A stretch of 64,000 nucleotides of DNA. Source: a virus. The translations under genes were made by a program, and so were the position numbers. Location of the stretch: positions 97,407 through 161,406 of the IMG/VR virus record IMGVR_UViG_3300020421_001669, one strand, 5' to 3'. The notes beneath the pieces were generated by a model. The model made no database searches. It was not told where the DNA came from and saw only the letters and a list, made by a program, of their open reading frames with translations. Numbering within the stretch: the first letter of the stretch is position 1; the number at the start of each line of letters is the position of its first letter. Positions 5,724 through 47,509 of this stretch are shown here, in pieces.

Positions 5724-6227
5724 GTGACTCGTTTTTCTCCAAATCAATGGTTTGAACTTCCTCTTTCTATATCTGAGGACTTGAAAGAAGAACTACTGAA
5801 CTGGGATATAGAGAACGCGAAAAACTATTTTATCCATGAACCAGAAGAAAACCATAGATTAGAGTTTTTGGAAATTCCTTTAACTAGGGTCAAAGAAGTG
5901 GCAGATAAATTTATGATTACTCCCACTAGAGCAACACTGGTTGCAATAGAACCCAATAGTGGTATTCCATTCCATACGGATGGGCAAACACACGATTATT
6001 GGAGACCAACCATAGCTTGTTTTCCACTATTTCCAAACTCTAAAACCTATGAATGTACTGAGTACAGGGATGGATTTGTGCCATATTGTGACTCTTATAT
6101 CTTTAACACACAAGAAGAACACAGGGCAGCAGCTGGTGATTGTAGGAGAATAAACCTACAATTATGGTTCGACCAACTCTTTGGAGAGGTAAAAACTTTA
6201 TTCGACAGCGGTAAGTTGTTGATTTAA
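5724..6227 (+). CDS. 2OG-Fe(II) oxygenase / cupin (AspH-like)
   Basis: HxD (FHTD), distal H (EEHRA) and RINLQ. Confidence 0.6.
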   Translation: MTRFSPNQWFELPLSISEDLKEELLNWDIENAKNYFIHEPEENHRLEFLEIPLTRVKEVADKFMITPTRATLVAIEPNSGIPFHTDGQTHDYWRPTIACFPLFPNSKTYECTEYRDGFVPYCDSYIFNTQEEHRAAAGDCRRINLQLWFDQLFGEVKTLFDSGKLLI

Positions 6228-6298
6228 AACGATATTTAATTTCACTTTTTTTCGCTTTGGCCCTTGACTTTTGGGTCAAAATATGGGATCATGATCAT
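6212..6298 (+). promoter_or_regulatory. Early sigma70 promoter with upstream IHF site and GATC-containing -10
   Basis: IHF consensus on minus strand 6212-6224; TTGACT 6264-6269, 17-nt spacer, TGnGATCAT; followed by a second GATC. Confidence 0.75.
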
Positions 6299-6311
6299 AT
6301 AAATTAGAGAA

Positions 6312-6686
6312 GTGAGAGAAAATATGCAAAAACAAATCGAAAACCTACTAACCTTAATCAACGAAGACTACGCGAGGTGGACTACTCGTTCTTGGGAAGC
6401 CAATGACTTTGGTGGAGAAGAAAGGCGAGATGCTCGCATTGCTGAGTTCGCTGATAAACTGGTTGTCAAAGAAGGTCAGAAATACATCAAGATTATTTCA
6501 GACAATTCAGTCTGGGGATTCATTGTCAAGGGTGACAATGATAAGTTATTTCAAAAGGGTGATGTTTTAAAACCCGCTGGTTGGGCTGCCCCCGCTAGGA
6601 ACAAACCTAGAGGCAATGTCTTTGAGATGTTGGAAGGTAAGGGAACTGGTTGGGTAAGATGGACTGGCCCTCAGTACTTACGATAG
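6312..6686 (+). CDS. Early hypothetical phage protein
   Basis: First gene after the early promoter; GDVLKPAGWAAPARNKPRGN motif. Confidence 0.8.
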   Translation: MRENMQKQIENLLTLINEDYARWTTRSWEANDFGGEERRDARIAEFADKLVVKEGQKYIKIISDNSVWGFIVKGDNDKLFQKGDVLKPAGWAAPARNKPRGNVFEMLEGKGTGWVRWTGPQYLR

Positions 6687-6690
6687 GAGA

Positions 6691-7098
6691 ATGAGAATGA
6701 TTGGTGATATAATTGCTGAAAAAGCTTATCTCAAAACCCAGATAAATAAATGGGAAGAAATTGTAGACAACATTGATTCTGCTGTTCGCAAGGTGAACGA
6801 AGAAACAAAAGTTATCAAGTACAATGATGTTCCTAGTAACATTTATATTACGGTTGAAGGGATTGCCGATGATTTGGGACTAAAGTTAAGTTCCGAAAAA
6901 AGTCAAGAACTGAAAAAAGAACTTGAATGGAAAATCAACGAAGTCCGTGAGGCGGTTAGCACTCTGGAATCTGCCATGTACAATTTGGTAGAACCATTTG
7001 AAGACATGAAAAGTGATGCTGAAAACAAGAAAGATGATTTTGAGTATGAACTTGATGACTTGGAGTGGGAAGAGGAAAAACTTCAAAACGCTTCATAG
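6691..7098 (+). CDS. Acidic coiled-coil hypothetical protein
   Basis: ORF with SD and heptad pattern. Confidence 0.75.
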   Translation: MRMIGDIIAEKAYLKTQINKWEEIVDNIDSAVRKVNEETKVIKYNDVPSNIYITVEGIADDLGLKLSSEKSQELKKELEWKINEVREAVSTLESAMYNLVEPFEDMKSDAENKKDDFEYELDDLEWEEEKLQNAS

Positions 7099-7203
7099 TT
7101 TTAAGGCGAATACAGGATGCCTGCTAAAGTCTGTATAGGTTGATGACCGAACATCCGCGAGGGGAATGAAAACGCCCCTCAACCTTTATTAATTGGAGAA
7201 ATT

Positions 7204-7476
7204 ATGAATCAGAATGATATAGTATCGGTGATTACACCAGCTGGTGAGTTTATAGGTAAACTTGCTTTTGAAACAGACACGCGATTGAAATTAAATGACC
7301 CACGCATGTTGATTACAACAAATGAAGGCATGGGGTTTGCTCGGGGAGTTTGCCTTACTGGTGTTGAGAATCCCGATGAGATGACATTTTACTCTGGTGG
7401 GATTGTTTTTGTTTCCCCAACCAATGAAGATGTGCAAAAATCTTATCGTAAATTCACAAGTGGAATTATAACATGA
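7204..7476 (+). CDS. Hypothetical protein, possible Sm-like fold
   Basis: VSVITPAGEFIGKL...LNDPRM beta-strand pattern; GGAG SD. Confidence 0.6.
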   Translation: MNQNDIVSVITPAGEFIGKLAFETDTRLKLNDPRMLITTNEGMGFARGVCLTGVENPDEMTFYSGGIVFVSPTNEDVQKSYRKFTSGIIT

Positions 7477-7694
7477 CCGAAAAATTACAAAAGATTGCTG
7501 ATGAAATTTCAAAGTGGGATGATAAACACGAACCTCTCGCTCAAGATATTTTAGATGCGTACAAATTTATATATAGATTACTAGACCCAGAAGGATTTGG
7601 GTTTGCTGTATCCGCTGAGGTTAGGGATGCTGCTCGAGTAGTCGTAGGACTAGAACCAGTGGAACAAAACCTATACAAAGCGAAAGATGAGTGA
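7473..7694 (+). CDS. Hypothetical protein
   Basis: ATGA-coupled ORF. Confidence 0.7.
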   Translation: MTEKLQKIADEISKWDDKHEPLAQDILDAYKFIYRLLDPEGFGFAVSAEVRDAARVVVGLEPVEQNLYKAKDE

Positions 7695-8055
7695 CGAAAC
7701 TAAGCAATTAGAATTAGACCTAAAAATACCTAAGTCAGATGAGGGAGAAGAGATGACCCCGAAATTCACTCCAGAAGAGATAGAAAATTCCAAAAGGATT
7801 TTTAAATCTGCTACACCAAAGTATGACCTTAGTTGGTATGTTAAGTGGGCATCTTCAATTCTTATTCTGATTGCTCTTACTATAAGAGCTGCTGATTATC
7901 CACGCATATACGATATGTGGTTTGGATTTGTTGGTATGATTGGTTGGACTTATGTTGGAATTCTATGGAAAGATAGGGCGATAATCATCATGAACATTAT
8001 CAGTACAATCCTTCTGGCTATTGGTCTCTTAACACATTATAGAGGATTATTCTAA
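7687..8055 (+). CDS. Small membrane protein (3 TM)
   Basis: WYVKWASS followed by three hydrophobic helices. Confidence 0.7.
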   Translation: MSDETKQLELDLKIPKSDEGEEMTPKFTPEEIENSKRIFKSATPKYDLSWYVKWASSILILIALTIRAADYPRIYDMWFGFVGMIGWTYVGILWKDRAIIIMNIISTILLAIGLLTHYRGLF

Positions 8056-8375
8056 TGCCAATTTACGAAATTGAGAACACCGAAACAGGTGAAGTCTTTG
8101 AAGTCATGATGAGGATTGATGACAAAGAAAAAATGATGAAGAAAAATCCACACTTTCGACAAGTACCATCCGCACCAGCTTTAAACTTTGGTGGTGTTGG
8201 AGATAGGGTAAAACCCGATGGTGGATTTAAAGATGTTCTGTCCAGAATCGCAGATTCAAATCCAACATCAGCTCTTGCAGATGATTATGGAAAGAAAGAT
8301 AAAAAATCAGTCGCTGTCCGTGACAGTATGAAACGAGTCAAAAAGAAATTAGGTTCTATCACAGACGGTTCATAA
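8055..8375 (+). CDS. FmdB-like protein common in T4-like phages
   Basis: MPIYE...ETGEVFE N-terminus; zinc-binding Cys residues absent. Confidence 0.6.
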   Translation: MPIYEIENTETGEVFEVMMRIDDKEKMMKKNPHFRQVPSAPALNFGGVGDRVKPDGGFKDVLSRIADSNPTSALADDYGKKDKKSVAVRDSMKRVKKKLGSITDGS

Positions 8376-8379
8376 TATT

Positions 8380-8820
8380 ATGAAGATAATGACATTGTGG
8401 GGTGAAGAAGAAGTTCATAACACAAGAATGTGTATACACTGTAAACAGGTAAAACACGAAGACGAATTTGGTATAAGGTCATATACGAAAAATGGAGTTA
8501 AATCAGAAAGAAGAAATGATTGCAATTCCTGTCGTAAAAAAGAAACTAAAATAAGAAATCAATTAAAGAAACAATATCCTAGACCTACTAATAAGGACTA
8601 TAAATGTCCTAGATGTAATAGAAGTCAACAAGACTTTATTGATGAGGGTAGATTTGTTCATACCAAGAAGAAGTCTATATTTGTTTTAGACCATGACCAT
8701 GAAACAGGACAATTCAGAGGATGGATATGTGACTACTGTAATACTATATGTGCAAGAGCATACGATGACCCCAGTATATTAGAGGCAAATGCAAGGGCAT
8801 TAAGAGAATTCAAATTGTGA
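8380..8820 (+). CDS. Endonuclease VII-family (His-Me) nuclease
   Basis: CPRC...LDHDHETGQFRGWICDYCN. Confidence 0.85.
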   Translation: MKIMTLWGEEEVHNTRMCIHCKQVKHEDEFGIRSYTKNGVKSERRNDCNSCRKKETKIRNQLKKQYPRPTNKDYKCPRCNRSQQDFIDEGRFVHTKKKSIFVLDHDHETGQFRGWICDYCNTICARAYDDPSILEANARALREFKL

Positions 8821-8921
8821 ATATTACCACTTTTTATTATTGACTTTTGATTCAAATTAGTGTTAAATATATAGGTGTCAAATAAGTGACACAACTCATA
8901 ACTCGACAAGAGGACTATGTT

Positions 8922-9806
8922 ATGAAATGGCTCAAAATGATTACTGCAATCTTTTTGATTTCAGTAGTAAATGTGGGGTGCGCTTCAGCCTCTGGTGGTA
9001 ATTACTATGAAGCCGTGCAAAGGGCAGCAGAGGCGAAAGCTAAAGTGTCTGAAGCACGATATCGAGCTCTCGCTCAAGTCGCATCTAGTGGTGATGGTCA
9101 GGCTGCATCTGCAGCTGTTATGGCAATCGCACTATCGAATGAAGACACAATCGTTCCACAGTATGTCGAATCTTCTGCTCTGAAATGGGCGCAAGTATTG
9201 ACACCAACTATCGGAACACTGGGGTTGGGTATCGTTCAAGCAAATGTTGCTAAGAACGCCGCTAACAAGGCTGCCGAAGTTCAAATGGCTTCTATGCAGG
9301 CAAACGCGGATATCCAATTAGGTCAACAAACCATGATTAGTAACATGGGTGGACAGTGGGCAGAGGTTGCAGCTGCTGGCGGACAGGCAACAGTTGATGT
9401 TGCTCTCGCTGGATTTGGCGCACTCAATACCGCTGGTGACCAAACTGTTACACTCGGTCTCGCTGGGTTAGATACTGCTGACAGTATCGCAACCACTGGT
9501 TTCACCACTGCTGGTGACATTGCTACAGTTGGTATGAACAACCTCAACGATATGGGTCAGTTTGGTATTACCACTGTTGGCGCAGTCGGAATGTACGGTA
9601 TCGATGCAGCTGAAACTTTAGGTATTCAAGGTATGTTGGGTATTCATGAAACCAATGAAGATTGGTTAACTTATACCACTAGTAGTGATACTAACTTTGC
9701 TCAGATTCTTGCAGATTTTAACGCAACAATCTTGCAATTTGGAACTGATTTGGGAACCCCTATCACATGTAACAATGACGGAAATGGAGTATTCAACTGT
9801 CAATAG
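8922..9806 (+). CDS. Ala/Gly-rich lipoprotein with 11-residue repeats
   Basis: Lipobox VNVG-C; GAGGA SD; hendecad repeats at 9453-9650. Confidence 0.65.
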   Translation: MKWLKMITAIFLISVVNVGCASASGGNYYEAVQRAAEAKAKVSEARYRALAQVASSGDGQAASAAVMAIALSNEDTIVPQYVESSALKWAQVLTPTIGTLGLGIVQANVAKNAANKAAEVQMASMQANADIQLGQQTMISNMGGQWAEVAAAGGQATVDVALAGFGALNTAGDQTVTLGLAGLDTADSIATTGFTTAGDIATVGMNNLNDMGQFGITTVGAVGMYGIDAAETLGIQGMLGIHETNEDWLTYTTSSDTNFAQILADFNATILQFGTDLGTPITCNNDGNGVFNCQ

Positions 9807-9820
9807 TTACATAAAAGTTG

Positions 9821-9828
9821 TATAAATA
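9821..9828 (+). promoter_or_regulatory. T4-type late promoter
   Basis: TATAAATA. Confidence 0.75.
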
Positions 9829-9829
9829 G

Positions 9830-9855
9830 AGGGGACATTGAGTCCCCTTTTTTTT
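9830..9855 (+). terminator. Intrinsic terminator
   Basis: AGGGGAC-attga-GTCCCCT followed by a T run. Confidence 0.85.
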
Positions 9856-9871
9856 AATTATGAGGTAAATT

Positions 9872-10342
9872 ATGGCAGATATAAAGAAAATTCTTGACGG
9901 TGAGGAATTCGTAGTTCAACCCCCCGAAGAATTAAAACTAGAAGAACAAACAGTCAATCCAAAATTAATGGGTGACGATGAACTATATGATGAAGACTTA
10001 GATGCTGAAACTGTCAAGGCACTATCACATGCTTTAGAACTTGACTATATTGAGAAGTGGAAAGTCTTTGCTCAAATGAAACTCCTAGAAAGAAATTTTG
10101 CAGTCGCTGAAGCGGCGAGGGTTGTTTTGCGTGACCAGTTAATTAAAGCAAATGCCAATGTACAAATTCTTCTGAGAAACTATGAAGAAAAGAAGATTGG
10201 TTTAGACCACGAGATAAAGCAAAAGTTGAAAGTTCAAGAAGAACTCAAGACAGTTCGTGCTGAGTTAAGGTCGCTTAAAAAAACTAAAGACATTTCCGAA
10301 GCGAAAAGCGCTAAAAATAAATCCGAGCCAAAAAACGCCTAG
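9872..10342 (+). CDS. Coiled-coil hypothetical protein
   Basis: GAGGT SD; heptad pattern. Confidence 0.75.
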   Translation: MADIKKILDGEEFVVQPPEELKLEEQTVNPKLMGDDELYDEDLDAETVKALSHALELDYIEKWKVFAQMKLLERNFAVAEAARVVLRDQLIKANANVQILLRNYEEKKIGLDHEIKQKLKVQEELKTVRAELRSLKKTKDISEAKSAKNKSEPKNA

Positions 10343-10351
10343 CTGGTTTTT

Positions 10352-10359
10352 TATAAATA
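10352..10359 (+). promoter_or_regulatory. T4-type late promoter
   Basis: TATAAATA. Confidence 0.8.
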
Positions 10360-10392
10360 GTGGGAAACAGATGTTTATGGAAGAAGCAATTA

Positions 10393-11646
10393 ATGGTCGG
10401 ATTTTTATCATATCTAAACGAAGATGCACAGGGGAAAAACCTACATCTTGAACACCTAGAAGACGAAATTCTTAATTTCGGAATAGGTGGAGCTCGTGGT
10501 GCAATTAATTTCCTACAGTCATTAAGAGATATGCTGTCGGGAAGTTCTCGTTCATCTGTAAACATGACAGTCAAGTGGGATGGCGCACCCGCTATATTTG
10601 CTGGTATAGACCCCAGTGATGGTAAATTCTTTGTTGCTAAGAAAGGTGTATTCAACAAGACACCACTATTATATAAGTCCACGCAAGAGATAAACAAAGA
10701 TAGTAAATTACCACAAGCACTAAAACCCGCCTTTATAATCGCATTACAAGAATTTAGTAAACTCGGAATCAAGGGTGTATTACAGGGTGACTTAATGTTC
10801 ACTTCTGGTTCACTTGAGTCCGAGACCATTGATGGTGAAAGATACACCACATTCCAACCAAATACAATAGTCTATGCTGTTCCTAAAATGTCAGAACTGG
10901 AACAGAAAATCAAAGCGGCTAAAATTGGTGTGGTATGGCACACTACATATACTGGTAACACACTAGAGAGTATGAAGGCATCTTTTGGTGTAAACATTAG
11001 TGGTCTCAGAAAATCAAAAAATGTCTGGATGGATGATGCTAGTTATAGAGATACTAGTGGAACTTCTACATTCACAAAAGCAGAAACCGCCGCTGTAACC
11101 ACGAAGTTGGCTAACTGTGGTAGGATATTTCAGAAAATAAATTCAGCACAATTAAGCAGTTTCTTAAAATTTCAAGCTGGGTTTACGGGCAAAATGGTTG
11201 GCGCCAACATCAAAACATATAACAATTCAAAAGTAAAAGTTGGTGCGAAGATATCAAATGTCGCTGGACATGTGTCTGGATATGCAAAATGGGTAGAAGA
11301 CAAATTTGATTCAGAGATAAATAAGTTAAAGACGGAGAAATCTAAAAGTCAACTAGAAAAAAGAAAGACTGAAACTCTAAGAGAACTATCTAAGTATAGT
11401 GTTCTTCTTACAAATGTCATCAATTTTCAGAACTCTATGGTAGAGGCGAAAATGATAATCGTTAGTAAATTAAATAGAGTAAAACAGTTAATGGATACCT
11501 TTGTTAGAACCAAACAGGGATTTAAAGTTACAAATCCAGAAGGATATGTTGCTATAGATAGGGTTTCTGGTAACGCGGTCAAACTAGTAGACAGAATGGA
11601 ATTCAGTTATAATAATTTTACAGCAATTAAGGCGTGGGATAGATGA
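10393..11646 (+). CDS. DUF6267-like protein with ATP-dependent ligase/nucleotidyltransferase-like motifs
   Basis: NLHLEHLED, TVKWDGAPA (KxDG), LQGDL, PEGYV, AVKLVDR. Confidence 0.7.
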   Translation: MVGFLSYLNEDAQGKNLHLEHLEDEILNFGIGGARGAINFLQSLRDMLSGSSRSSVNMTVKWDGAPAIFAGIDPSDGKFFVAKKGVFNKTPLLYKSTQEINKDSKLPQALKPAFIIALQEFSKLGIKGVLQGDLMFTSGSLESETIDGERYTTFQPNTIVYAVPKMSELEQKIKAAKIGVVWHTTYTGNTLESMKASFGVNISGLRKSKNVWMDDASYRDTSGTSTFTKAETAAVTTKLANCGRIFQKINSAQLSSFLKFQAGFTGKMVGANIKTYNNSKVKVGAKISNVAGHVSGYAKWVEDKFDSEINKLKTEKSKSQLEKRKTETLRELSKYSVLLTNVINFQNSMVEAKMIIVSKLNRVKQLMDTFVRTKQGFKVTNPEGYVAIDRVSGNAVKLVDRMEFSYNNFTAIKAWDR

Positions 11647-12230: not shown

Positions 12231-12233
12231 CTT

Positions 12234-22349: not shown

Positions 22350-22378
22350 TTGACTTCTGCCCCCGGCGAATGTATAAT
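22350..22378 (+). promoter_or_regulatory. sigma70 promoter of the primase gene (probably leaderless transcript)
   Basis: TTGACT-17-TATAAT with an upstream A-tract. Confidence 0.8.
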
Positions 22379-22385: not shown

Positions 22386-23429
22386 ATGCTTTATGTAGAT
22401 GTGAAATATATCAACTTGATATCTCATCATTTTGAGAAATTCAAGAAAAAGAATGATTATCTTTGGAATGTAAGATGCCCGTTCTGTGGCGATTCACGCA
22501 AGAATCAAAACAAGATGCGTGGATATTTTTTCCGCAAAGAAAACAATATGATTTACAAATGCCACAACTGTGGTTTTGGTGCTAGCGTTGCGACTGTTCT
22601 CAAAGAACTCGCACCTACTACACACAAGGAATATTGTCTTGAAAGATTTGGTGAGAATGAGAATAAAAACTGGGAACCAAAGGGCGCAAACTGGACTCCA
22701 AACGGACACAAATTGTTTGATGATAAACCAGTAGAACCACCCAAGTTCACACCAAAATTTAGTTTATTTGATAAACTTGTGGATAGATTGGATACACTTC
22801 CATATGACCATGAGGCAGTTCAATATGTGAAAAGTAGAAATATTCCAAATGATAAATTGGATCGACTTTACTATATTGATAACATAAAAAATATAGTACA
22901 ACTTAATGACAAATACTCTAAATCGATAGTAACAGAAGAACCCAGATTGGTCATTCCCTTCTTTGACCAAGATGGACAGTTGATGTCGGTGTCATTAAGA
23001 GCTATGAGAGGGGAAACACTGAGGTATATTCTAGTTAAAGTTAAAGAGGATGCACCTACAGTATTCGGTTTGGATAGAGTTGATATGTCTAAACCTATAT
23101 CAGTTGTTGAAGGGCCGATAGATAGTCTGTTTCTTGAAAACAGTATTGCCTGTTCTGGCACTTCATTCAACAAAATTGAACAATTGGGAATCAACCATGA
23201 TAAGATTACAATCGTGTTCGACAATCAACCGCGTAACAAAGATGTTGTTAAGTTGGTTGAAAAATATGTTGACCTTGATTATAATGTTGTCATATGGCCA
23301 GAATCAATTGTACAAAAAGATATAAATGATATGGTGAACGATGGTATTGATGTACGCGATGTTATTAGTAGTAATACACAGAGTGGACTGACTGCCAAGT
23401 TTTTATTAAATCAATGGAAAAAATGTTAG
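22386..23429 (+). CDS. 61: DNA primase (gp61)
   Basis: RCPFCGDS, CHNCG zinc finger, VEGPIDS and FDNQPRN Toprim motifs, KDINDM. Confidence 0.96.
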   Translation: MLYVDVKYINLISHHFEKFKKKNDYLWNVRCPFCGDSRKNQNKMRGYFFRKENNMIYKCHNCGFGASVATVLKELAPTTHKEYCLERFGENENKNWEPKGANWTPNGHKLFDDKPVEPPKFTPKFSLFDKLVDRLDTLPYDHEAVQYVKSRNIPNDKLDRLYYIDNIKNIVQLNDKYSKSIVTEEPRLVIPFFDQDGQLMSVSLRAMRGETLRYILVKVKEDAPTVFGLDRVDMSKPISVVEGPIDSLFLENSIACSGTSFNKIEQLGINHDKITIVFDNQPRNKDVVKLVEKYVDLDYNVVIWPESIVQKDINDMVNDGIDVRDVISSNTQSGLTAKFLLNQWKKC

Positions 23430-38913: not shown

Positions 38914-38985
38914 AATCAATGACTTACAGAGGCGGATTTATTGATATTTCGCTTGACTTTTGCCCCTATTTCTGTCATGATCATA
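38914..38985 (+). promoter_or_regulatory. Early sigma70 promoter with IHF site and GATC overlapping -10
   Basis: AATCAAtgacTTA 38914-38926; TTGACT 38953-38958, 17 nt, TGtCATGAT-C. Confidence 0.75.
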
Positions 38986-39014
38986 ATGTAAGATAAATCA
39001 TGAGAGGAAAAAAT

Positions 39015-39263
39015 ATGACAAATAAAATTGATTTCGTTGGTGCAAATAATGGTGGTCTTGAGTTCACACTTGAGAATGACAATTATGAGAACAAACTTGT
39101 GGGCAAAAACCTTGAAGAGTGTGCTTTGATTATCGCAAAATATGGTCTTGCTGACAGTGTGATGGGTTCTTCTTCAATGGATTTCGCAAGTGAATCTGGT
39201 TTTGAGAACGATGAAGACGCGATGACCATGTACCAATATGCAATCAAATTGGCGGGAGTTTAA
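39015..39263 (+). CDS. Early hypothetical protein
   Basis: GAGGA SD after the early promoter. Confidence 0.75.
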   Translation: MTNKIDFVGANNGGLEFTLENDNYENKLVGKNLEECALIIAKYGLADSVMGSSSMDFASESGFENDEDAMTMYQYAIKLAGV

Positions 39264-40281: not shown

Positions 40282-40506
40282 ATGATTGGATTAGAATTAT
40301 CAGCAATGCTGGTGGGAATCACTGCAATGTTAGCATATAGATGGGGATTTAGGAAAGGTACTGCATCCTCAGCAACCGCAACGATGTTTATCATGCGAGA
40401 GTTTTTGAATGAGAGTCAAGGTTCTGATTGGACTGACATCACACTAGGCAAAAACTTTAACAGGGTACACAGGTGGATGGATAAATTAGAAAATGGCGAG
40501 GAGTAG
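40282..40506 (+). CDS. Small membrane protein
   Basis: N-terminal TM then WGFRKG. Confidence 0.65.
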   Translation: MIGLELSAMLVGITAMLAYRWGFRKGTASSATATMFIMREFLNESQGSDWTDITLGKNFNRVHRWMDKLENGEE

Positions 40507-41186: not shown

Positions 41187-42147
41187 TCTATCCAGAAATC
41201 TAATTACAGGAGGTTGCTCATTCACAGCACATCTGAGTGAAGATACGCTTTCGTGGGCAAACCAATTAGAACAGAAATACGATAATGTGATTAACACCGC
41301 TGAGATGGCAAGCGGTAATCAGATTATTTGTGACAGAATATGTTACGAATTAAGTAAGCCTGAGGTAACGAGTGATAACACAATGGTCGCTGTCATGTGG
41401 AGTTCGCCCTTTAGAAAAGAATTCCTATTCACATACGATGACCCAGACTATAACGAAATACAGCATCTCTTTCCTAGAGACAAGCCAGGCTTCAGTAATT
41501 ACTTTCTAACAGATAAACCCCACGAGAAACATCCAACATCTAACTGGCTTATCGTAGGGGGCGGATATGGCATCTGGAATTACGAAGTAACGCCGCTGGA
41601 CGCTAGATTGAAAAACTATTTTAGTGATATATACAATCCCGAAGAGGCATATGTGAGCACTCTGAGGGCCATGATTACTGTACAGAGTTTATGTCAGGCG
41701 AAAAACATTCCGCTGTTAAACATGTGTTGGCAGAGTATCTTTCATGATTTGGGGAGTAAGGATTTTGAAGCTGAGGAGAGTTTTTGGAAGAAAGATGTGG
41801 TTAGCACTACAGGATGGTTATATACGCGACTGAGAACAGCATTTAGCAACAGAGAACGCAATAAAGGATTACTGACAAAGCAGGAATTATTGAGCGATTA
41901 TCATAACAAAAGAATTGATAAACTGTACCCTAATACAAAACACTGGTTTGAGCTAATCGATTGGGGTACATGGCACTTCTATGAGAACGATTTAATTCAG
42001 AAAGGTGGATTACAGGAGTTTTCGCATTATGAGTGTAAAACAAAAAGTGAAGATTTAAAACTTCATCCGAGTACTGAGGTACAAAGAAAATGGATGAAAA
42101 GAATAATGAAAGTGATAGAGGAAAAATATGGCATGGAAATCAATTAA
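41170..42147 (+). CDS. SGNH-hydrolase-like protein
   Basis: TGGCSFT, SWA, ASGN, VMWS, LHPS. Confidence 0.55.
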   Translation: MVAKGSLSRNLITGGCSFTAHLSEDTLSWANQLEQKYDNVINTAEMASGNQIICDRICYELSKPEVTSDNTMVAVMWSSPFRKEFLFTYDDPDYNEIQHLFPRDKPGFSNYFLTDKPHEKHPTSNWLIVGGGYGIWNYEVTPLDARLKNYFSDIYNPEEAYVSTLRAMITVQSLCQAKNIPLLNMCWQSIFHDLGSKDFEAEESFWKKDVVSTTGWLYTRLRTAFSNRERNKGLLTKQELLSDYHNKRIDKLYPNTKHWFELIDWGTWHFYENDLIQKGGLQEFSHYECKTKSEDLKLHPSTEVQRKWMKRIMKVIEEKYGMEIN

Positions 42148-42328
42148 AGAAACATTATGGGGAAATCCTAATAAAGGCATTAGTGGAGAACCAGACCCAA
42201 ACGATTTAACACTAGAGAACGCATATAAGACGCGCTGGATATGGTATCACACTATATTGGGAATCGAATTATTAATCGTTATTATAGTACAGGTTGCTAT
42301 ATTGACGCTTCTGGCAGTGAAATTATGA
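42128..42328 (+). CDS. Small membrane protein
   Basis: NAYKTRWIWYH followed by a TM. Confidence 0.65.
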   Translation: MAWKSIKETLWGNPNKGISGEPDPNDLTLENAYKTRWIWYHTILGIELLIVIIVQVAILTLLAVKL

Positions 42329-42438
42329 GTGCATTTATAGAAAGAGCAATATGGTTGGGTCTAGGATACTGGATTGGGATTGGTGCGCCTCTACCCGATT
42401 GTATACTAGGATGGTGTCAGACAGTGGGGAGTGTTTAA
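42325..42438 (+). CDS. Small hydrophobic protein
   Basis: ATGA-coupled; MSAFIERAIWLGLGYWIG. Confidence 0.45.
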   Translation: MSAFIERAIWLGLGYWIGIGAPLPDCILGWCQTVGSV

Positions 42439-42646
42439 GATATGCTTGGATGCGCCATACCCATAGTAATAGGGTTTATATTGGGGTTTCTCATTGGAAA
42501 GTATACCCGATAGTTCTGTACTTGAACTGTGGAGGGAAAAAAGTGGGAAATAGTGGTTATCTAAATCCGCGAGTGAGCAGGAGTGAGCGCCGCTGCCCGA
42601 CCAAAAAATCTGACACCGCTGCCGCTCCCAGACGCGGTAAAGAGAG

Positions 42647-42675
42647 ATCATACCACAGCACGGCACTAATGTCAA
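42647..42675 (-). promoter_or_regulatory. Leftward (antisense) sigma70 promoter with GATC overlapping -10
   Basis: Minus strand TTGACA-17-TATGAT with extended TG; GATC at 42646-42649. Confidence 0.7.
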
Positions 42676-42718
42676 GCACTTTCCGCCATAATTAATTCGT
42701 TTTATTTGAAGAAAACGC

Positions 42719-42747
42719 TTGACAACTGCTATTCCGATGTGTATAAT
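42719..42747 (+). promoter_or_regulatory. Consensus sigma70 promoter
   Basis: TTGACA-17-TATAAT with extended TG. Confidence 0.85.
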
Positions 42748-42782
42748 AAGGTGTCGCCTTTAAGAAGAGATATGGCTGCTGC

Positions 42783-42855
42783 TAAGTGATTGATATATAA
42801 GGGAAATAAAAGATAAAATAATCCTTGACATCTGGTGTAGCCTGTGTCATGATCA
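42783..42855 (+). promoter_or_regulatory. Early sigma70 promoter with IHF site and GATC overlapping -10
   Basis: IHF consensus on minus strand 42783-42795; TTGACA 42825-42830, 17 nt, TGtCATGAT-C. Confidence 0.75.
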
Positions 42856-42882
42856 CTATGTATTGAGATGAGGGAATCACAT

Positions 42883-43311
42883 ATGCGTTTAGTTATCCAT
42901 ACCCAGTACCGAGAGAATTACGGCGCCCACGATTGGGACGGTAAGGGTGAATGCCCGCAGTACTGGAAGTTTAAGGGTGGCAGCACCTATGTGGTGGGGT
43001 GTGACCTACAACAGGCACAAGACCCCGCCTTCTATGACTCTGTGGCCAAGTGCATTGAGCATAAGTCGGAGTACTGTGAAGAGTACTTCATAGGCGAATC
43101 ACTCGTTGATGATTGTGATTTTGATAAGGATAGTGTGGTGGACTCATGGGACACGGCCATCTATGCTGAATACATAGGTGGGCAATTGCACTGCCAAGAG
43201 GATGTAAAAGACTATACTATGGAGCGCAATGTTATCGGTCAGCGCTCGTGGTTACAGTGTAAGGATGGCCGATATGAAATGGAATTAGAAATGTTTGAAG
43301 AGGCAGCGTGA
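42883..43311 (+). CDS. Early hypothetical protein
   Basis: TQYRENYG...YWKFKGGSTY motif. Confidence 0.75.
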   Translation: MRLVIHTQYRENYGAHDWDGKGECPQYWKFKGGSTYVVGCDLQQAQDPAFYDSVAKCIEHKSEYCEEYFIGESLVDDCDFDKDSVVDSWDTAIYAEYIGGQLHCQEDVKDYTMERNVIGQRSWLQCKDGRYEMELEMFEEAA

Positions 43312-43560
43312 GCTGCTGACTACTCGACTCCCTAAAGGAGCCGTGCCGAACCGAGTCGAGTAGCACATTCACAGGCGCGGAGGTGTTGTGACCTAATACA
43401 CACGCGGCCCCCCACGGTTAGGGGGCCATCCCCAGCAGTCGGGCCTATGCTTTGGGATCGGTGTGGACGCCCTTACAAGGGCATCTGGCATCCCCCCATA
43501 TGCATTACTAAAAAAAGTTTTTGCCCAGTATAGGAAACCGCCACAGAATTTTTTTCGGGA
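43305..43560. other. GC-rich non-coding multi-hairpin region
   Basis: Perfect 11-bp stem CTACTCGACTC/GAGTCGAGTAG, GGCCCCC/GGGGGCC and GCCCTT/AAGGGC, followed by A/T tracts. Confidence 0.6.
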
Positions 43561-43568
43561 TATAAATT

Positions 43569-44006
43569 ATGGCAGATATAATTTTTGATGTAGACGGCAC
43601 TCTTATGGATATTACTCATAGGAGGCATTTTGTTGCACAGCGTCCCAAGGATTTTGATTCGTTTCGGAGTCATACTGAATTCGATACCCGAAAGGAACAC
43701 ATTTTTTCGGTTGCGGATGCGTTACAGGCACAGGGGCATCGTATTCTTATATCTACTGGTAGGAATAAGTCTCAAAGGGATATTACTATTAAACAGATAA
43801 GGGATGGCGGTATAGACTTTGAGCAGATATACATGCGTTCTGACAGTGACTATACACCAGATGATGAGTTAAAGTCACGATTCTTAGACCGTATGATATC
43901 AGATGGTTACAATCCTACTATGGCATTTGATGACCGTCAAAGGGTTGTGGACATGTTTCGTTCACGAGGTTTAACAGTCTTCCAAGTTGCGGAAGGCAAT
44001 TTTTAG
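43569..44006 (+). CDS. Stand-alone polynucleotide 3'-phosphatase (PseT HAD domain-like)
   Basis: IIFDVDGTL, STGR, YMRS..DY.PD..LK, FDDRQRVV. Confidence 0.85.
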   Translation: MADIIFDVDGTLMDITHRRHFVAQRPKDFDSFRSHTEFDTRKEHIFSVADALQAQGHRILISTGRNKSQRDITIKQIRDGGIDFEQIYMRSDSDYTPDDELKSRFLDRMISDGYNPTMAFDDRQRVVDMFRSRGLTVFQVAEGNF

Positions 44007-44013
44007 GAAAATT

Positions 44014-44259
44014 ATGGGAGTATACGATTATCAAAAAGAACTACTTAGAAAAAATGATACCTATGAGTCAACGGACAGTGAATATTATAGTTCACAGTCT
44101 CTTTTGGGGAACAATTTTCGTGTTGTTCGTTCTAGCGGTACAACCTACACCAGTTTATTGACAGGTGTGGGACTAGCATTCGCGTTTGGATATCTTTATG
44201 ATGAGATATACATGTTAGTGTTAGAACTCTGGTGTGTGGCATATGGGATTCTCATGTAA
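44014..44259 (+). CDS. Small membrane protein
   Basis: Hydrophobic C-terminus. Confidence 0.55.
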   Translation: MGVYDYQKELLRKNDTYESTDSEYYSSQSLLGNNFRVVRSSGTTYTSLLTGVGLAFAFGYLYDEIYMLVLELWCVAYGILM

Positions 44260-45050
44260 TGACAATTAAAATAAAGGGTGGCGGATATCCCCCAGATGGA
44301 TTACCCCCCAAGATGAACAGAGAAATATCTTTTGAGTTGTCTGGAAGTACAGGCAAGCATAATCTTTGGGTGTATGGAGACTCATTTGCATCTCAACCAT
44401 CGCCTTGGTTGTCTATGATTGCAAAAGAATTTAATCTCACTCAGCAGAATCATGCATGGCCTGGGTCTTCACTCGACTATGCCAGCGTACAAATCAATAA
44501 AACAATGAACTCGTGGACAAAAAAGGATGTTGTCATTGTTTGTCTTACTGAGGTATTGCGTATCTGGGAAAGATGGGAACATAAAGACCACGGCAGTAAG
44601 AATTTCAAAGGGAGACATATCCCCCGATCTGCAATTCTTGATATGAAAGACAGCAAGGGTTCCAAGGGTCTTGAGACTATGCCTCTTCAACCTACCATAC
44701 AGATTAACACATCACTACGCAATCATCTCATAAGAATTTTATCCCATGCGGATGTGCGTGCCGTGGTGGTGCTTGATGGGTTCAAGAACAAGGCAAACAG
44801 TTCCATCGATATCCCCGACAATATCACATACAGTGATAAGGGGTATCTCATGGAGGTGAGTATTAAGGAACCGATTGGGTGGTACAATTTCAGTACACTC
44901 GGGCCAGACCACCGCGACAATCACCTATCGGAAGTTAACCACCCTATCCTAGCGGAAAAAGTCTGTAATGCAGTGAAAAACGGCACCAATATAGACCTAA
45001 CAGATGGCTTTGAGGCGGATATTTTTAGAGTTGGTGAACCCGAAGAGTAA
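44259..45050 (+). CDS. SGNH-hydrolase-like protein
   Basis: VYGDSF, NHAWPGSS, RDNHLS. Confidence 0.55.
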   Translation: MTIKIKGGGYPPDGLPPKMNREISFELSGSTGKHNLWVYGDSFASQPSPWLSMIAKEFNLTQQNHAWPGSSLDYASVQINKTMNSWTKKDVVIVCLTEVLRIWERWEHKDHGSKNFKGRHIPRSAILDMKDSKGSKGLETMPLQPTIQINTSLRNHLIRILSHADVRAVVVLDGFKNKANSSIDIPDNITYSDKGYLMEVSIKEPIGWYNFSTLGPDHRDNHLSEVNHPILAEKVCNAVKNGTNIDLTDGFEADIFRVGEPEE

Positions 45051-45082
45051 AAAAAATCGATCTTTTTTGCTTTCCTTTGGAA

Positions 45083-45145
45083 AATCAATGGCTTACGGAG
45101 GCAGCTTTTCCTTGACATTTGCCCCGATATATGGGATCATGATCC
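45083..45145 (+). promoter_or_regulatory. Early sigma70 promoter with IHF site and double GATC at -10
   Basis: AATCAAtggcTTA 45083-45095; TTGACA 45112-45117, 17 nt, TGgGATCAT-GATC. Confidence 0.75.
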
Positions 45146-45173
45146 TGTAATCAATTGAGAGAGGTTAAAAATT

Positions 45174-45536
45174 ATGGCTTATGTATCCCAAGAAAAGAAA
45201 AAAGAACTTGCGGTTGGTATCAAAGCGGTACTTAAAAAGTACAAGATGAAAGGTACTATCGCGGTCAACAATCATTCTACTTTGGTTGTCAATCTAAAGT
45301 CTGGGCCCATCAACTTCAAGGCGCAAAACGAACATTATCAAGTTAATCCTTACCATGTCGAGTCTCAGTGGACTGGCGTTGCTAAGGAGTTTCTGCTTGA
45401 GTTGTTGGAAGCGATGAAGGGTGAAGGTACTGGATGGTTTGACAAGTCCGATATCATGACCGACTACTTCCATACTGCTTGGTACAATGATATCAACATT
45501 GGAAAGTGGAACAAATCTTACGAACTAACTGCTTAA
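45174..45536 (+). CDS. Early hypothetical phage protein
   Basis: MAYVSQE.KK...DKSDIMTDYFH.AWY..INIGKW. Confidence 0.8.
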   Translation: MAYVSQEKKKELAVGIKAVLKKYKMKGTIAVNNHSTLVVNLKSGPINFKAQNEHYQVNPYHVESQWTGVAKEFLLELLEAMKGEGTGWFDKSDIMTDYFHTAWYNDINIGKWNKSYELTA

Positions 45537-45546
45537 GGAGAGAGAT

Positions 45547-45810
45547 ATGACAGTTGAAACTATCAAAAAAGAAATGCTGACGATGAGTCAGTCCGAGTTG
45601 AGTATGATTATTAACTATGCTCAACAAATCAAGAAGGTATCCGCGACTGCCACCTTTTCGGTGGGTGACAAGGTTATCGTGGTTCAGAAAACCAAACGCC
45701 GTGAGGGTGTGATTCTCAAGATGAACACCAAGAAGGCTGTTGTCGAGATGCCTTGGCAAGGTCGAATCGCTTCGGTGAATGTTCCTTACTCTATGTTGGA
45801 GGCAGCTTAA
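45547..45810 (+). CDS. Small KOW/SH3-like protein
   Basis: FSVGDKV...GVILKMN.KKAVV. Confidence 0.65.
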   Translation: MTVETIKKEMLTMSQSELSMIINYAQQIKKVSATATFSVGDKVIVVQKTKRREGVILKMNTKKAVVEMPWQGRIASVNVPYSMLEAA

Positions 45811-45935
45811 TGAGCTGCCACTACACTGAGGCTTTTCTTGAGCGTTATTTTGAAGAGGGTCTTGAGATGGGCATGACCGATGAACAAGCAGAAGCATACG
45901 CATACAAAATGCTAGAGGAGGCGCCCCAACCTTGA
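45810..45935 (+). CDS. Small acidic protein
   Basis: TAATG-coupled; LERYFEEGL. Confidence 0.55.
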   Translation: MSCHYTEAFLERYFEEGLEMGMTDEQAEAYAYKMLEEAPQP

Positions 45936-46426
45936 GTCTGGTTCTTCGTGTGACAGGTGGAAACAAATTCCAAAAACAGTTGGCGTTCGGCACCATACAG
46001 TTTGCTGTCAAGCGCCTCATTCCTACTATTAGAAAACTTGATATCAACATTCACATTCGGAGTTTCAAAAAAGAGGGTAGTACAATCGGATATTGTACCG
46101 ATGATTCATCTGACTTCTGTGACTTTGTTGGTAAGTCACCTAGGCGATTTCAAATTGAAGTATCAAAAGACTTGAACTTGACGGATTTCATTAGATGTAT
46201 TTTACATGAGTTTGTCCACCTCAAGCAATTTGTCAATCGTGAGATGGTAGAGTTAGATACTGGCAAGACCCGATGGAAGGGCAAAACCATTTCCAAAAAA
46301 GTTACATACAAAGACCAACCGTGGGAAAAAGAAGCTTACAGGTTGGAAGAGAAATTGCTCTGGGAGTGTTTAGAGCAACAAGAGTTTTTGACAACGGATA
46401 TTAATCGTAATGGAGTAAGAGCATGA
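45932..46426 (+). CDS. Zinc metallopeptidase-like protein (HExxH)
   Basis: ILHEFVHLKQ...YKDQPWEKEAY. Confidence 0.75.
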   Translation: MSLVLRVTGGNKFQKQLAFGTIQFAVKRLIPTIRKLDINIHIRSFKKEGSTIGYCTDDSSDFCDFVGKSPRRFQIEVSKDLNLTDFIRCILHEFVHLKQFVNREMVELDTGKTRWKGKTISKKVTYKDQPWEKEAYRLEEKLLWECLEQQEFLTTDINRNGVRA

Positions 46427-46587
46427 TTAGATGGATTATAGGGTTTTTCTTAATACTTGGTAGTGCTGGTGGTCTGGAACAAGACACCATGACTATCTCA
46501 CAAACACTGGCGTTTGCCACTTTGGGTTTTGCACTCATGGGGTGGGCGACTTCCGATTTCAATAAGCAATATGGAGAAGATGTATGA
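46423..46587 (+). CDS. Small two-TM protein (not in ORF track)
   Basis: MIRWIIGFFLILGSAGGLE...; ATGA-coupled at both ends. Confidence 0.6.
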   Translation: MIRWIIGFFLILGSAGGLEQDTMTISQTLAFATLGFALMGWATSDFNKQYGEDV

Positions 46588-46835
46588 TTCGTGTAAAAAG
46601 CAAAAACTACAAACAGGTCATTGACCTTGATGGGCCTGACGGCAATGCTTTCGTTTTGATGGGTACTGCCCGTGGTGTATTGCGAAAAGGTGGCGAGAAC
46701 GACTTCAGTGAAATGGTTCTCAAAGAAATGGCATCAAGTGACTACACCAATCTAGTCAAGACCTTTGACAAGTACCTTGGTTCGTACTTCACTCTTGAGA
46801 CTTCTAATGAAGAGTTGTTAGAGGCGTTATCTTGA
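46584..46835 (+). CDS. Hypothetical protein
   Basis: IDLDGPDGNAFVLMG motif. Confidence 0.75.
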   Translation: MIRVKSKNYKQVIDLDGPDGNAFVLMGTARGVLRKGGENDFSEMVLKEMASSDYTNLVKTFDKYLGSYFTLETSNEELLEALS

Positions 46836-47029
46836 GTTATACCTATCTGAAAGAAATCACCGATTGGGGTGAACAGAAAGTTAAGAACCACACCTATATC
46901 TTCAATGAGAAGAATCAGAATGTTGGTTATATCATATCGGGAACCAAGGAAGAACTTTTCTACAATAAACCTTCCAAGTTGTTTAGTAAGGCGCGTAGAA
47001 AGTTCGTGGAGGTAAAACAATGGGCATGA
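46832..47029 (+). CDS. Hypothetical protein
   Basis: LKEITDW...NHTY...FSKARRKF. Confidence 0.7.
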   Translation: MSYTYLKEITDWGEQKVKNHTYIFNEKNQNVGYIISGTKEELFYNKPSKLFSKARRKFVEVKQWA

Positions 47030-47349
47030 TGAACATGGGCGGTAGCCTTCGATACGATATGTCTGGGCGTAAGCGTAGAGCATATAAGAAGAATAATCCT
47101 ACGCGAAAAACCAAGATACAGGATTCTGGAAAACCTTTGCGTGTAGATAGTTCTCGTCTTGAAGAGATGAATGAACACAGGCGAAAGTATCCATCACTTA
47201 ATTCCTTTGGGCAGACTTCAGGCACTAAGGACGATAAGTGGATACGCGAGAAGCAAGAAATCTCGCAAGGTTATACTGTTGCACCCGCTTACAATAAAGG
47301 GGCGTATCAAGTAATTGGGAAGAGTAATATCAAAGATATTGGTAAATAA
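47020..47349 (+). CDS. Basic hypothetical protein
   Basis: YTVAPAYNKGAYQVI motif. Confidence 0.75.
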   Translation: MGMMNMGGSLRYDMSGRKRRAYKKNNPTRKTKIQDSGKPLRVDSSRLEEMNEHRRKYPSLNSFGQTSGTKDDKWIREKQEISQGYTVAPAYNKGAYQVIGKSNIKDIGK

Positions 47350-47354
47350 CTTCT

Positions 47355-47431
47355 CTCCCAATAGCTCAACTGGATAGAGCAACGGCCTTCTAAGCCGTAG
47401 GTTGTAGGTTCGAGTCCTACTTGGGAGGCCA
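47355..47431 (+). tRNA. tRNA-Arg (UCU)
   Basis: Canonical cloverleaf, anticodon loop CTTCTAA, GTTCGAGTC T-loop, encoded CCA. Confidence 0.97.
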
Positions 47432-47459
47432 AACAAAGGAAAAAAAATTAAAAAAACGC

Positions 47460-47509
47460 TTGACATTTGCAAAAAAGATCAGTATAATGTTTACTAAGTT
47501 GTATAAATA
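47460..47509 (+). promoter_or_regulatory. Tandem sigma70 and late promoters
   Basis: TTGACA 47460-47465, 17 nt (GATC in spacer), TATAAT 47483-47488; TATAAATA 47502-47509. Confidence 0.85.

Follow-up and report, generated by a model that had tools for sequence, protein, structure and literature searches.

GATC at the -10 element marks a class of promoters with an IHF-type upstream box in a GATC-depleted marine T4-like phage

Comparison of related phages showed, at the level of sequence, that the placement of GATC in promoters of this phage is selected or maintained, and that it is linked to a genome-wide depletion of the same word. The DNA analyzed was a 64,000-nt stretch (the window) of the 161-kb genome of an uncultured marine T4-like phage. 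Within the window GATC occurs 16 times, compared with 216 +/- 12 in shuffled sequences, with starts at 6287, 6293, 17231, 18803, 22860, 35564, 38979, 42646, 42851, 43456, 44626, 45059, 45135, 45141, 47477 and 49916. An earlier reading made from the sequence only had given about 14 copies against roughly 200 expected; the depletion it described was correct and its count slightly low, the sites at 22860 and 44626 having been overlooked. The whole genome holds 34 GATC where 555 were expected, far below expectation, with an observed/expected ratio of 0.06, which corresponds to removal of 94% of the sites. Genome word counts gave zero for ACGT and for at least 17 six-base palindromes, and CCGG was likewise lost. 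Since GATC was lost together with these words, restriction avoidance is the likelier cause, and the GATC depletion is one component of a very broad restriction-site avoidance. Strong genome-wide loss of GATC is also known from enterobacteriophages (McClelland 1984; Deschavanne and Radman 1991; phiX174, PMC5014478), whereas here it is accompanied by loss of ACGT, CCGG and six-base palindromes, and what stands out is that promoters selectively retain the word.

The retained sites were not scattered at random with respect to promoters. Fourteen of the 34 genomic GATC lie 6-40 nt 3' of a TTGACW -35 element (binomial p = 6e-9), against a background of 6.3% obtained from the 23 remaining tetramers with one each of G, A, T and C, and the promoter enrichment that had been proposed was therefore confirmed. 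Half of the GATC in the window (8/16) fall in promoter -10 regions, the same eight-site figure reached from the sequence only. When numbered relative to the promoter, GATC starts almost exclusively at -12 (26 cases), -9 (9 cases) or -6 (21 cases), with five cases at -18; a start at -12, -9 or -6 was found in nine promoters of the genome, which places these sites in overlap with a -10 or -35 element. In the -18 to -3 region of 23 strong promoters there were 12 GATC compared with 1.3 expected, which indicates over-representation and goes beyond mere failure to purge the word. All adenines of promoter GATC fall inside the stretch melted by RNA polymerase, the non-template strand having them at -11, -8 or -5 and the template strand at -10, -7 or -4.

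A distinct group of these promoters, referred to here as the GATC class, has a core consisting of TTGACW, a 17-nt spacer ending in TRTGn, and a -10 element of either GATCAT or CATGATC, often with a second GATC directly 3' of the -10. The class has six members in the genome. Because the GATCAT promoters are one sequence family, their number exaggerates that of independent events. Four members are located in the window, each with a 17-nt spacer and TG at -15/-14:

6212..6296, + strand: GATC-class promoter 1; bottom-strand IHF-type box 6212-6224, TTGACT 6264-6269, GATCAT 6287-6292, GATC 6293-6296.
38914..38982, + strand: GATC-class promoter 2; box AATCAATGACTTA 38914-38926, TTGACT 38953-38958, TGt followed by CATGAT 38976-38981, GATC 38979-38982 (-9..-6).
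42783..42854, + strand: GATC-class promoter 3; bottom-strand IHF-type box 42783-42795, TTGACA 42825-42830, CATGAT 42848-42853, GATC 42851-42854.
45083..45144, + strand: GATC-class promoter 4; box AATCAATGGCTTA 45083-45095, TTGACA 45112-45117, GATCAT 45135-45140, GATC 45141-45144.

The shared architecture of these four promoters, with -35 elements at 6264, 38953, 42825 and 45112, had been described from the sequence only, and every coordinate was correct. Promoter 1, in which the spacer ends in ATATGG, precedes a gene at 6312-6686; in relatives its first GATC was kept in 4/4 and its second in 3/4 cases, and GATCATGATC was present at all 17 DnaB-anchored loci of the clade in which the promoter was detected. 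Promoter 2 drives a cluster of small genes from 39015 on, and in relatives the same upstream box is followed either by its own allele or by TGgGATCATatac, both of which contain GATC. The targets of promoter 3 are a gene at 42868-43311 and a PNKP-type phosphatase gene at 43569-44006, and the corresponding element in relatives reads TGaGATCAT or TGgGATCAT. Promoter 4 precedes a conserved 120-aa gene (45174-45536, phrog_10415); its first GATC was kept in 4/4 relatives, and the second was lost in two, which had gained a GATC in the spacer.

Upstream of each GATC-class promoter we found a box of the form WATCARNNNNTTR, in either orientation, with its 5' end at -64/-65 or -74/-75. Perfect matches to WATCAANNNNTTR are located at 6212-6224 (-), 38914-38926 (+), 42783-42795 (-) and 45083-45095 (+), ending 39, 26, 29 and 16 nt before the -35 element, exactly the 16-39 nt range noted previously for putative IHF sites. 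Five of the six class members have a perfect WATCARNNNNTTR match, and the sixth is perfect in relatives. While the number of IHF-consensus matches in the genome equals chance (18 versus 18.8 +/- 4.5), their placement is non-random, as 5/18 are found at the six GATC-class promoters, no more than 60 nt upstream, compared with none at 17 canonical promoters. Among unique promoters the box was present in 44/77 of the GATC class compared with 6/118 canonical ones. Variants of the box among relatives (TGAC, TAAC, TAGC, TGGC, GGGC, CAAC, CCAC, TATG) lie without exception at N positions, and beyond these only W (A/T) and R (A/G) were seen to vary. Forward sites have the consensus W at -64 or -74 and reversed sites at -65/-64 or -75, which amounts to a fixed helical phase; the linkers between box and promoter are equal in length and unlike in sequence, and the two box positions are 10 bp apart. 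As to an A/T tract on the 5' side of the consensus, a T run was seen 6-12 nt upstream of forward sites, and in reversed sites the A run is farther away, at about 21-27 nt; the IHF consensus is known to occupy one side of the IHF footprint (PMC9519438). Restriction of changes to N, W and R positions, together with two fixed positions 10 bp apart, makes the identification of the box as a predicted IHF site well supported at the sequence level. No gene of the HU/IHF family was found among the phage genes. RNAalifold analysis of 18 cassettes gave zero consensus pairs, so that no conserved RNA hairpin explains the box, and only 1/6 cassettes folded singly was better than its own shuffles. As in lambda pL, Mu Pe and ilvPG, a consensus IHF site in either orientation stands upstream of a sigma70 core at fixed helical phase. 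Here, in contrast, the box is closer (5' edge at -64 or -74), is predicted only, and is tied to an unusual -10 element. We know of no description of IHF dependence in T4-like phages.

The GATC class recurred in every close relative. The primary promoter GATC was kept in 21/21 orthologous comparisons versus 19/33 for GATC elsewhere, and enrichment downstream of the -35 element was also seen in relatives G001-G004, G009 and G010 and was absent from the undepleted genomes G006-G008. Alleles were found to be swapped at one promoter with each version containing GATC, in one case CATGATCAT versus GGGATCATATAC, in another GATCATGATC versus a spacer GATC with GATCAT. When the upstream box alone was used as query, so that GATC was not presupposed, the 15 unique box promoters recovered from GATC-depleted phages all had GATCAT or CATGATC, compared with TATAAT in all four box promoters from an undepleted sister lineage. 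In a DnaB-anchored sample, GATC was present in 17/47 promoters of the clade with at least 91% identity and in 1/31 promoters of the group with 77-79% identity, at a locus itself depleted (8/38), while about 100 promoters of undepleted relatives contained at most one GATC of this kind. Such selected placement in relatives suggests that GATC at these promoters may enable the phage to sense DNA methylation.

Promoters of the genome which do not belong to the class were also considered, two with GATC and two serving as canonical comparisons:

42646..42675, - strand: promoter TTGACA-17-TATGAT followed by C; GATC 42646-42649 at -9..-6; without an IHF-type box.
47460..47488, + strand: consensus promoter TTGACA-17-TATAAT; GATC 47477-47480 at -18..-15.
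42719..42747, + strand: canonical comparison promoter TTGACA-17-TATAAT; no GATC and no box, with a spacer GATC in some relatives.
22350..22378, + strand: canonical comparison promoter TTGACT-17-TATAAT.

The first two had been picked out earlier as additional promoters with GATC at or beside the -10 (minus strand 42675-42647, and 47460-47488), and both are real. Their GATC was kept in 3/3 alignable relatives for the minus-strand promoter and in 4/4 relatives for that at 47460..47488, which lies closely 3' of a tRNA-Arg gene (47355-47431). At the position apparently corresponding to 22350..22378, as judged from conserved sequence nearby, the allele of relatives is GATCATGATC.

The reading we prefer, to which we give a probability of about 0.4, is that the class consists of sigma70 promoters assisted by host IHF, in which the -10 adenines would be methylated by a host GATC methylase, tying promoter activity to replication or to the previous host. 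Host sigma70 RNA polymerase would read these promoters, and host IHF would provide the upstream bend needed by a weak -10. The host activity which makes GATC costly elsewhere may also supply the adenine methylase, the likeliest source being a GATC restriction-modification system, or Dam if the host has one; the very wide restriction-site avoidance makes the methylase of a host restriction system more likely than Dam. N6-methylation of the -10 adenines would be expected to alter sigma70 recognition or melting, so that firing would differ between injected DNA (fully methylated), replicated DNA (hemimethylated or unmethylated) and DNA from a methylase-free host. The direction of the effect is a guess, namely that methylation at -11 inhibits and gives rise to a replication-coupled delayed-early class. 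The sequence-only reading had proposed that GATC is counter-selected everywhere except where it acts as a promoter switch; the purge and the retention at -10 elements were borne out, and a search of the phage genome for the dam gene it called for found no Dam-type methylase (PF02086, PF05869 and PF01555, covering D12-class, phage Dam and N4/N6 families). MutH and DpnII were likewise not found in the phage. The nearest cultured relatives infect OM43 and SAR11 hosts; to our knowledge these are not classic Dam/SeqA/MutH organisms and lack Dam. Counting against the preferred reading, a purge driven by a cutting enzyme would imply a cost for the dozen retained sites, and the genes downstream of the class give no indication of timing. 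The relative Melnitz shows a stronger purge (4/176) yet has zero promoter GATC, and several further GATC-depleted lineages are likewise without it.

The closest known parallel is pIN, the transposase promoter of IS10, which has a -10 of TATGAT followed by C. Roberts et al. in 1985 (listed in PMC10073500) reportedly described Dam-sensitive promoters with GATC in the -10 element, IS10 pIN and the Tn5/IS50 transposase promoter among them. In these, as here, GATC overlaps a sigma70 -10, and TATGATC and CATGATC share the register of pIN. An IHF site is also located near the IS10 promoter, as the predicted one is here, and the logic of pIN is that predicted here, with activity following methylation of one or both strands and hence passage of the replication fork. 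The present case differs from pIN in comprising a class of six to seven promoters per genome, in a lytic T4-like phage with GATC purged elsewhere, known from sequence alone, and in its commonest form, GATCAT, which places the methylatable adenine at -11.

An alternative explanation, which we consider somewhat unlikely, is that GATC is a functionless passenger of mobile promoter cassettes spread by recombination or gene conversion, carried along after a single GATAAT-to-GATCAT change and tolerated because RNA polymerase occupies and melts this stretch on entry and hides it from the restriction enzyme. Consistent with this, members of the class show clear sequence kinship over -35, spacer and leader (GTAATTGAGAG), homology among relatives ends precisely where the box does on its outer side and gives way to at least five different upstream contexts, orthologous positions show exchange of whole alleles as in PeSL cassettes (PMC2839356, PMC4122927), the enriched positions from -12 to -3 are all within the melted region, and distant relatives have GATAAT, one base from GATCAT, at an orthologous promoter. 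However, cassettes with the same box carry TATAAT in the undepleted sister lineage, and the GATC form is confined to phages in which GATC is selected against, whereas drift would predict the reverse. GATC at or beside the -10 is also kept by unrelated promoters that have no box (TATGATC; TAGAAT followed by GATC; GATCAG followed by TATAAT), with conservation in two to four relatives, and further forms were found in other lineages (G009, G010, L054-L057); overall GATC was present in 20-36% of promoters versus about 1% in undepleted relatives.

Two other explanations make GATC incidental to a different function. Palindromes over the -10, GATCATGATC and ATGATCAT, could bind a phage or host repressor that switches the class off or on, GATC being merely part of its recognition sequence. 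GATCATGATC is indeed a perfect 10-bp palindrome at three promoters here and at many in relatives, and class-specific regulation is plausible given that the class has its own upstream box. The center of symmetry varies, however: in GATCATGATC it falls between the A and the T of CATG, in ATGATCAT it is inside GATC, and the distance of TCATGATC from the -35 differs by 3 nt from one subtype to the other. Relatives can dispense with the second GATC, many members have GATCAT followed by unrelated sequence, and the link to genome-wide depletion is left unexplained. Since the only element common to all is GATC, in four registers with different flanks, this operator alternative, also raised from the sequence only, is weakened and we regard it as quite improbable. 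Kinetic tuning appears very improbable: with a perfect -35, TRTGn and help from IHF, a consensus -10 would bind too tightly, and GATCAT and CATGAT would be weakened hexamers in which the essential bases, A at -11 and T at -7, are preserved. In both, position 2 is indeed A and position 6 is T; TG stands at -15/-14 in all members, and at the same promoter further weakened hexamers are found in relatives (GATAAT, CATAAT, TACAAT). Nevertheless, many equally weak hexamers free of GATC exist and are used by undepleted relatives, and these would be the expected choice after 94% of GATC had been removed; GATC at -6..-3 and -18..-15 is also left unexplained.

Marine T4-like phages related to cyanophages, pelagiphages and OM43 phages time their genes without the MotA/AsiA system of T4, and neither protein was found in this phage. 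Melnitz-type phages have no recognized middle promoters (PMC9004378). A second sigma70 class that can be recognized from sequence, equipped with a dedicated upstream architectural site and a -10 open to methylation, is a concrete and testable candidate. In an extension of the preferred reading which, taken whole, is unlikely, the GATC class would be the missing middle mode of marine T4-like phages without MotA/AsiA: IHF would pre-bend the promoter, N6-methyladenine left by the previous host at -11 of GATCAT would shut it on the injected genome, and the unmethylated strands from the first rounds of replication would open it. If true, this would be a protein-free, replication-coupled timer that also reports whether the previous host had a methylase. 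A genome can avoid a restriction site and at the same time use that word for regulation, and because the retained sites mark regulatory DNA, residual sites in a purged genome offer a practical means of finding regulatory elements in uncultured phages.

As with the PeSL cassettes of T4-type phages (PMC2839356, PMC4122927), the promoters here are near-consensus sigma70 promoters in short conserved cassettes bordering gene blocks in which close relatives differ, with alleles exchanged between positions. In contrast to PeSLs, a conserved stem-loop was not found and the IHF-type box forms the conserved upstream part; GATC content is not a feature of the described PeSLs (PMC2839356, PMC4122927), and GATC is absent from the 2014 paper. 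Genes downstream of GATC-class promoters include CobT/VWA-like, CobS/MoxR-like and PNKP-type phosphatase genes, as well as small genes without known relatives.

An IMG/VR virus record of 161,406 bp, complete to about 91%, ends with the 64 kb of the window. By protein matches, the DnaB-type helicase of the phage shares 63% identity with that of Methylophilales phage Melnitz and about 60% with cyanomyovirus helicases, and the gene order helicase, primase, ribonucleotide reductase, small early genes and tRNA-Arg(TCT) is common to the phage and Melnitz. These matches therefore place the source among uncultured marine T4-like phages, close to Melnitz and to the cyanomyoviruses. They also ruled out a Herelleviridae-type phage with a Gram-positive host, which the GC content, the scarcity of GATC and the absence of ACGT had suggested. 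As psbA was not found in the phage, it is probably not a cyanophage. A host search over genome contigs gave a sole match of 32%, in a Carboxylicivirga genome. Within the window, Rfam returned only the tRNA.

GATC was strongly depleted, with 16 occurrences in the window compared to 216 ± 12 in shuffles, and 34 in the whole genome compared to 555 expected. The depletion described by the sequence-only reading was thus borne out, although its count of about 14 was too low, sites 22860 and 44626 having been overlooked. ACGT was absent from the whole genome, window included (173 expected under a Markov model, 544 from composition), CCGG had an observed/expected ratio (O/E) of 0.23 and at least 17 six-base palindromes were at zero, including ACGCGT, GGTACC, GTCGAC, GTGCAC, TCGCGA, TCTAGA and TTCGAA. 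The words lost differ among relatives, CGCG rather than ACGT being lost in Melnitz. Since these other words are also absent or depleted, the loss of GATC looks like part of a wide avoidance of restriction sites and not like the work of Dam/MutH alone. A CcrM-type signal was ruled out, as GANTC was at expectation.

With respect to the GATC that remains, six promoters of this genome belong to what we term the GATC class (TTGACW, a 17-nt spacer ending in TRTGn, and a -10 of GATCAT or of CATGAT followed by C). Four of these are in the window, and all four have the 17-nt spacer, the TGn extension, the GATCAT or CATGAT hexamer and the perfect IHF-consensus match at the positions originally attributed to them.

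GATC-class promoters and their purine-rich leaders (window positions unless marked genome)
-35 at 6264: promoter 1; leader at 6297-6325
-35 at 38953: promoter 2; leader at 38982-39015
-35 at 42825: promoter 3; leader at 42854-42868
-35 at 45112: promoter 4; leader at 45145-45174
genome 84143 and genome 86683: promoters outside the window, upstream of CobT/VWA-like and CobS/MoxR-like genes

Two further promoters proposed to carry GATC at or beside the -10 were also recovered, a minus-strand TATGAT followed by C (GATC at -9 to -6) and the promoter at 47460 (GATC at -18 to -15). Fourteen of the 34 genomic GATC lay 6-40 nt 3' of TTGACW, compared to 6.3% for the 23 other tetramers containing G, A, T and C once each (p = 6e-9), and 12 were found at -18 to -3 of 23 strong promoters where 1.3 were expected. 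The proposed promoter enrichment is therefore real beyond chance; GATC is over-represented in this stretch and about 25-fold under-represented elsewhere. In seven related genomes, GATC near promoters started at -12 (26), -6 (21), -9 (9) and -18 (5), with almost none at other positions. A protective context for leftover GATC was ruled out, as GATCAT or ATGATC occurred at 5 of 22 non-promoter sites where about 4 were expected.

Genome-wide there were 18 matches to the IHF consensus, exactly as many as chance predicts. Their placement was not random, however. Five of them fell in the 60 nt preceding one of the six class promoters, and the 17 canonical promoters had none. At the sixth class promoter this upstream match, hereafter the box, is one base off consensus here and perfect in relatives. 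Over all unique sequences collected, the box was present at 44 of 77 GATC-class promoters compared to 6 of 118 canonical promoters, and variation among relatives fell at N positions (TGAC, TAAC, TAGC, TGGC, GGGC, CAAC, CCAC, TATG) or within W and R. The box can point either way. Its 5' end (W) lies at -64 or -74 in forward copies and at -65/-64 or -75 in reversed ones, a difference of 10 bp between the two positions, and the linkers between box and promoter are equal in length and unrelated in sequence. In an IHF footprint the consensus is off-centre, to one side (PMC9519438), and with these positions the predicted centre of the bend would hence vary little from case to case, as an architectural protein requires. 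No HU/IHF-family protein is encoded by the phage, which would leave binding of the box to a protein of the host. A role for the box in an RNA hairpin or terminator was rejected, since single folds of two cassettes gave a U-rich/purine-rich stem with no consensus structure and no covariation, and a sigma32 reading of CCCTTGAC...CCCC was ruled out by wrong spacing. Between the class promoters and the start codon there is also a common leader (GTAATTGAGAG ... GAGAGG), rich in purines and only some 30 nt long, and the cassette therefore takes in the ribosome-binding region.

Four close relatives covered in full (G001-G004, 57-137 kb) all lacked ACGT and had a GATC O/E of 0.06-0.15, with promoters accounting for 31-58% of the remaining GATC in each. 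TTGACW-N17-SATSAT occurred 3-7 times per genome and not at all in the reversed control; a stricter pattern was found in 65 viral contig stretches, in about 12 promoter groups, where by our own estimate about 2 would be expected. The primary promoter GATC was kept in 21 of 21 orthologous comparisons, whereas other GATC sites were kept in 19 of 33, close to the neutral level for sequences of 80-95% identity. Allele turnover at two promoters preserved the word itself. At 38953 the phage has TGtCATGATCAT where relatives have TGgGATCATatac, the sequence upstream being shared; at 45112 it has GATCATGATC, compared to GATCAT together with a GATC in the spacer in G002 and G003.

Viral contigs were also searched with the upstream box and flank alone, such that GATC was not presupposed. 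In GATC-depleted, ACGT-free phages the box preceded 15 different promoters, all GATCAT or CATGATC, whereas all four unique sequences from a sister lineage in which GATC is at normal frequency (2-4 per kb) had TATAAT behind this box and -35. The box therefore predates the GATC -10. At helicase-anchored loci, the -10 region held GATC in 17 of 47 promoters of the clade at or above 91% identity (O/E 0.06) compared to 1 of 31 in the 77-79% group (O/E 0.70), and that one locus is itself depleted (8 of 38). Loci anchored on the 120-aa gene behind promoter 4 gave TATAAT, GATAAT or CATAAT at the orthologous promoter in relatives at or below 70% identity, with GATC near the -10 confined to loci of low GATC density. 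The link holds in one direction only, since depletion without promoter GATC is seen in Melnitz (GATC 4 of 176 over 50 kb) and in some further lineages. As few lineages are involved (perhaps five with the feature) and their counts are phylogenetically uncorrected, the association is suggestive but falls short of proof. Another relative, Paraglaciecola phage GD1, whose host is probably Dam-positive, was uninformative as a test case, being undepleted and having different promoters. In sister lineage G006 (L223:12757-12860) and at L191, the box promoter TATAAT is flanked by an inverted GGCC pair (tGGCC TATAAT GGCCa); enclosure of the -10 by a restriction-type palindrome may thus recur with different words.

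At the level of sequence comparison, these data show a distinct promoter class that keeps GATC in its -10, a feature confined to lineages otherwise removing this word. Our main, still tentative, explanation is methylation, to which we give a probability of roughly 0.4. A single GATC-reading host activity would lie behind both depletion and retention, its nuclease or a MutH-like nicking making GATC costly in general and its methylase marking the few sites retained. The methylatable adenine is the -11 adenine in GATCAT, and is at -8 and opposite -7 in CATGATC and TATGATC. Sigma70 flips the -11 adenine into a pocket. Methylation at these positions should change open-complex formation, as it reportedly does at IS10 pIN (an effect credited to Roberts and colleagues in 1985, as listed in PMC10073500), and expression of the class units would then depend on whether the DNA has been injected, has been replicated or comes from a host free of the methylase. 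All phage-encoded GATC enzymes sought (D12, phage Dam, N4/N6 methylase, MutH/Sau3AI, DpnII) were absent, and the dam gene that the sequence-only reading had proposed to look for in the full genome was thus not found. MotA and AsiA were not detectable in the phage, by searches in which control genomes could not give positives for these families, and no middle promoters are known in Melnitz-type phages (PMC9004378), which makes a replication-coupled class an attractive possibility.

Spread of a merely tolerated cassette is a doubtful alternative, though one to be taken seriously. The GATCAT promoters are a single sequence family, homology among relatives ends exactly at the box with alleles swapped, as in the PeSL mobile promoter cassettes of T4-type phages, and GATC in a melted stretch is possibly hidden from restriction. 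Such spread nevertheless predicts zero or negative association with GATC depletion and leaves the unrelated promoters with kept GATC unexplained. An operator palindrome over the -10 is improbable, since neither the centre nor the register of the palindromes is constant and the second GATC can be lost. Plain tuning of -10 strength is also improbable, given that GATC-free hexamers are equally serviceable and are used by undepleted relatives. GATC-methylation-sensitive promoters, IHF-assisted promoters, PeSL cassettes and phage GATC avoidance are each known alone; no description of their combination was found in a literature search of wider aim than this exact combination, and GATC is not mentioned in the PeSL paper (PMC4122927).

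Some local observations accompany these results. The GATC-class promoter at 42825 is one of three within about 200 bp (42646-42854), the others being the minus-strand TATGATC and a divergent consensus TATAAT at 42719. The minus-strand promoter, at 42675, was considered as the source of a small RNA, a reading rejected because shuffled sequences fold as well as the first 68 nt of its product; by eye, compensatory-looking changes appeared among relatives in a short CCGC...GCGG stem. A GC-rich hairpin region at 43403-43470 (GGCCCCCC...GGGGGCC) is terminator-like on the minus strand, and the GATC inside it at 43456 is kept in 3 of 3 alignable relatives, yet no promoter is recognisable there. In aligned cassettes, a further conserved element about 30 nt upstream of forward boxes consists of an A-run, a TTCAAC-like core, a T-run and then GC (45051-45070); the copy at 45051 holds a non-conserved GATC at 45059. 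The element is too weak for an obvious terminator. The 120-aa gene (45174-45536, phrog_10415) is unusually widespread for an early gene, with 93 viral-contig relatives and matches to Melnitz (62%), Paraglaciecola phage GD1 (54%), Sinorhizobium phages phiM12/phiN3 (42-45%, with a DnaJ annotation in some of the records) and many Klebsiella phages (about 33%).
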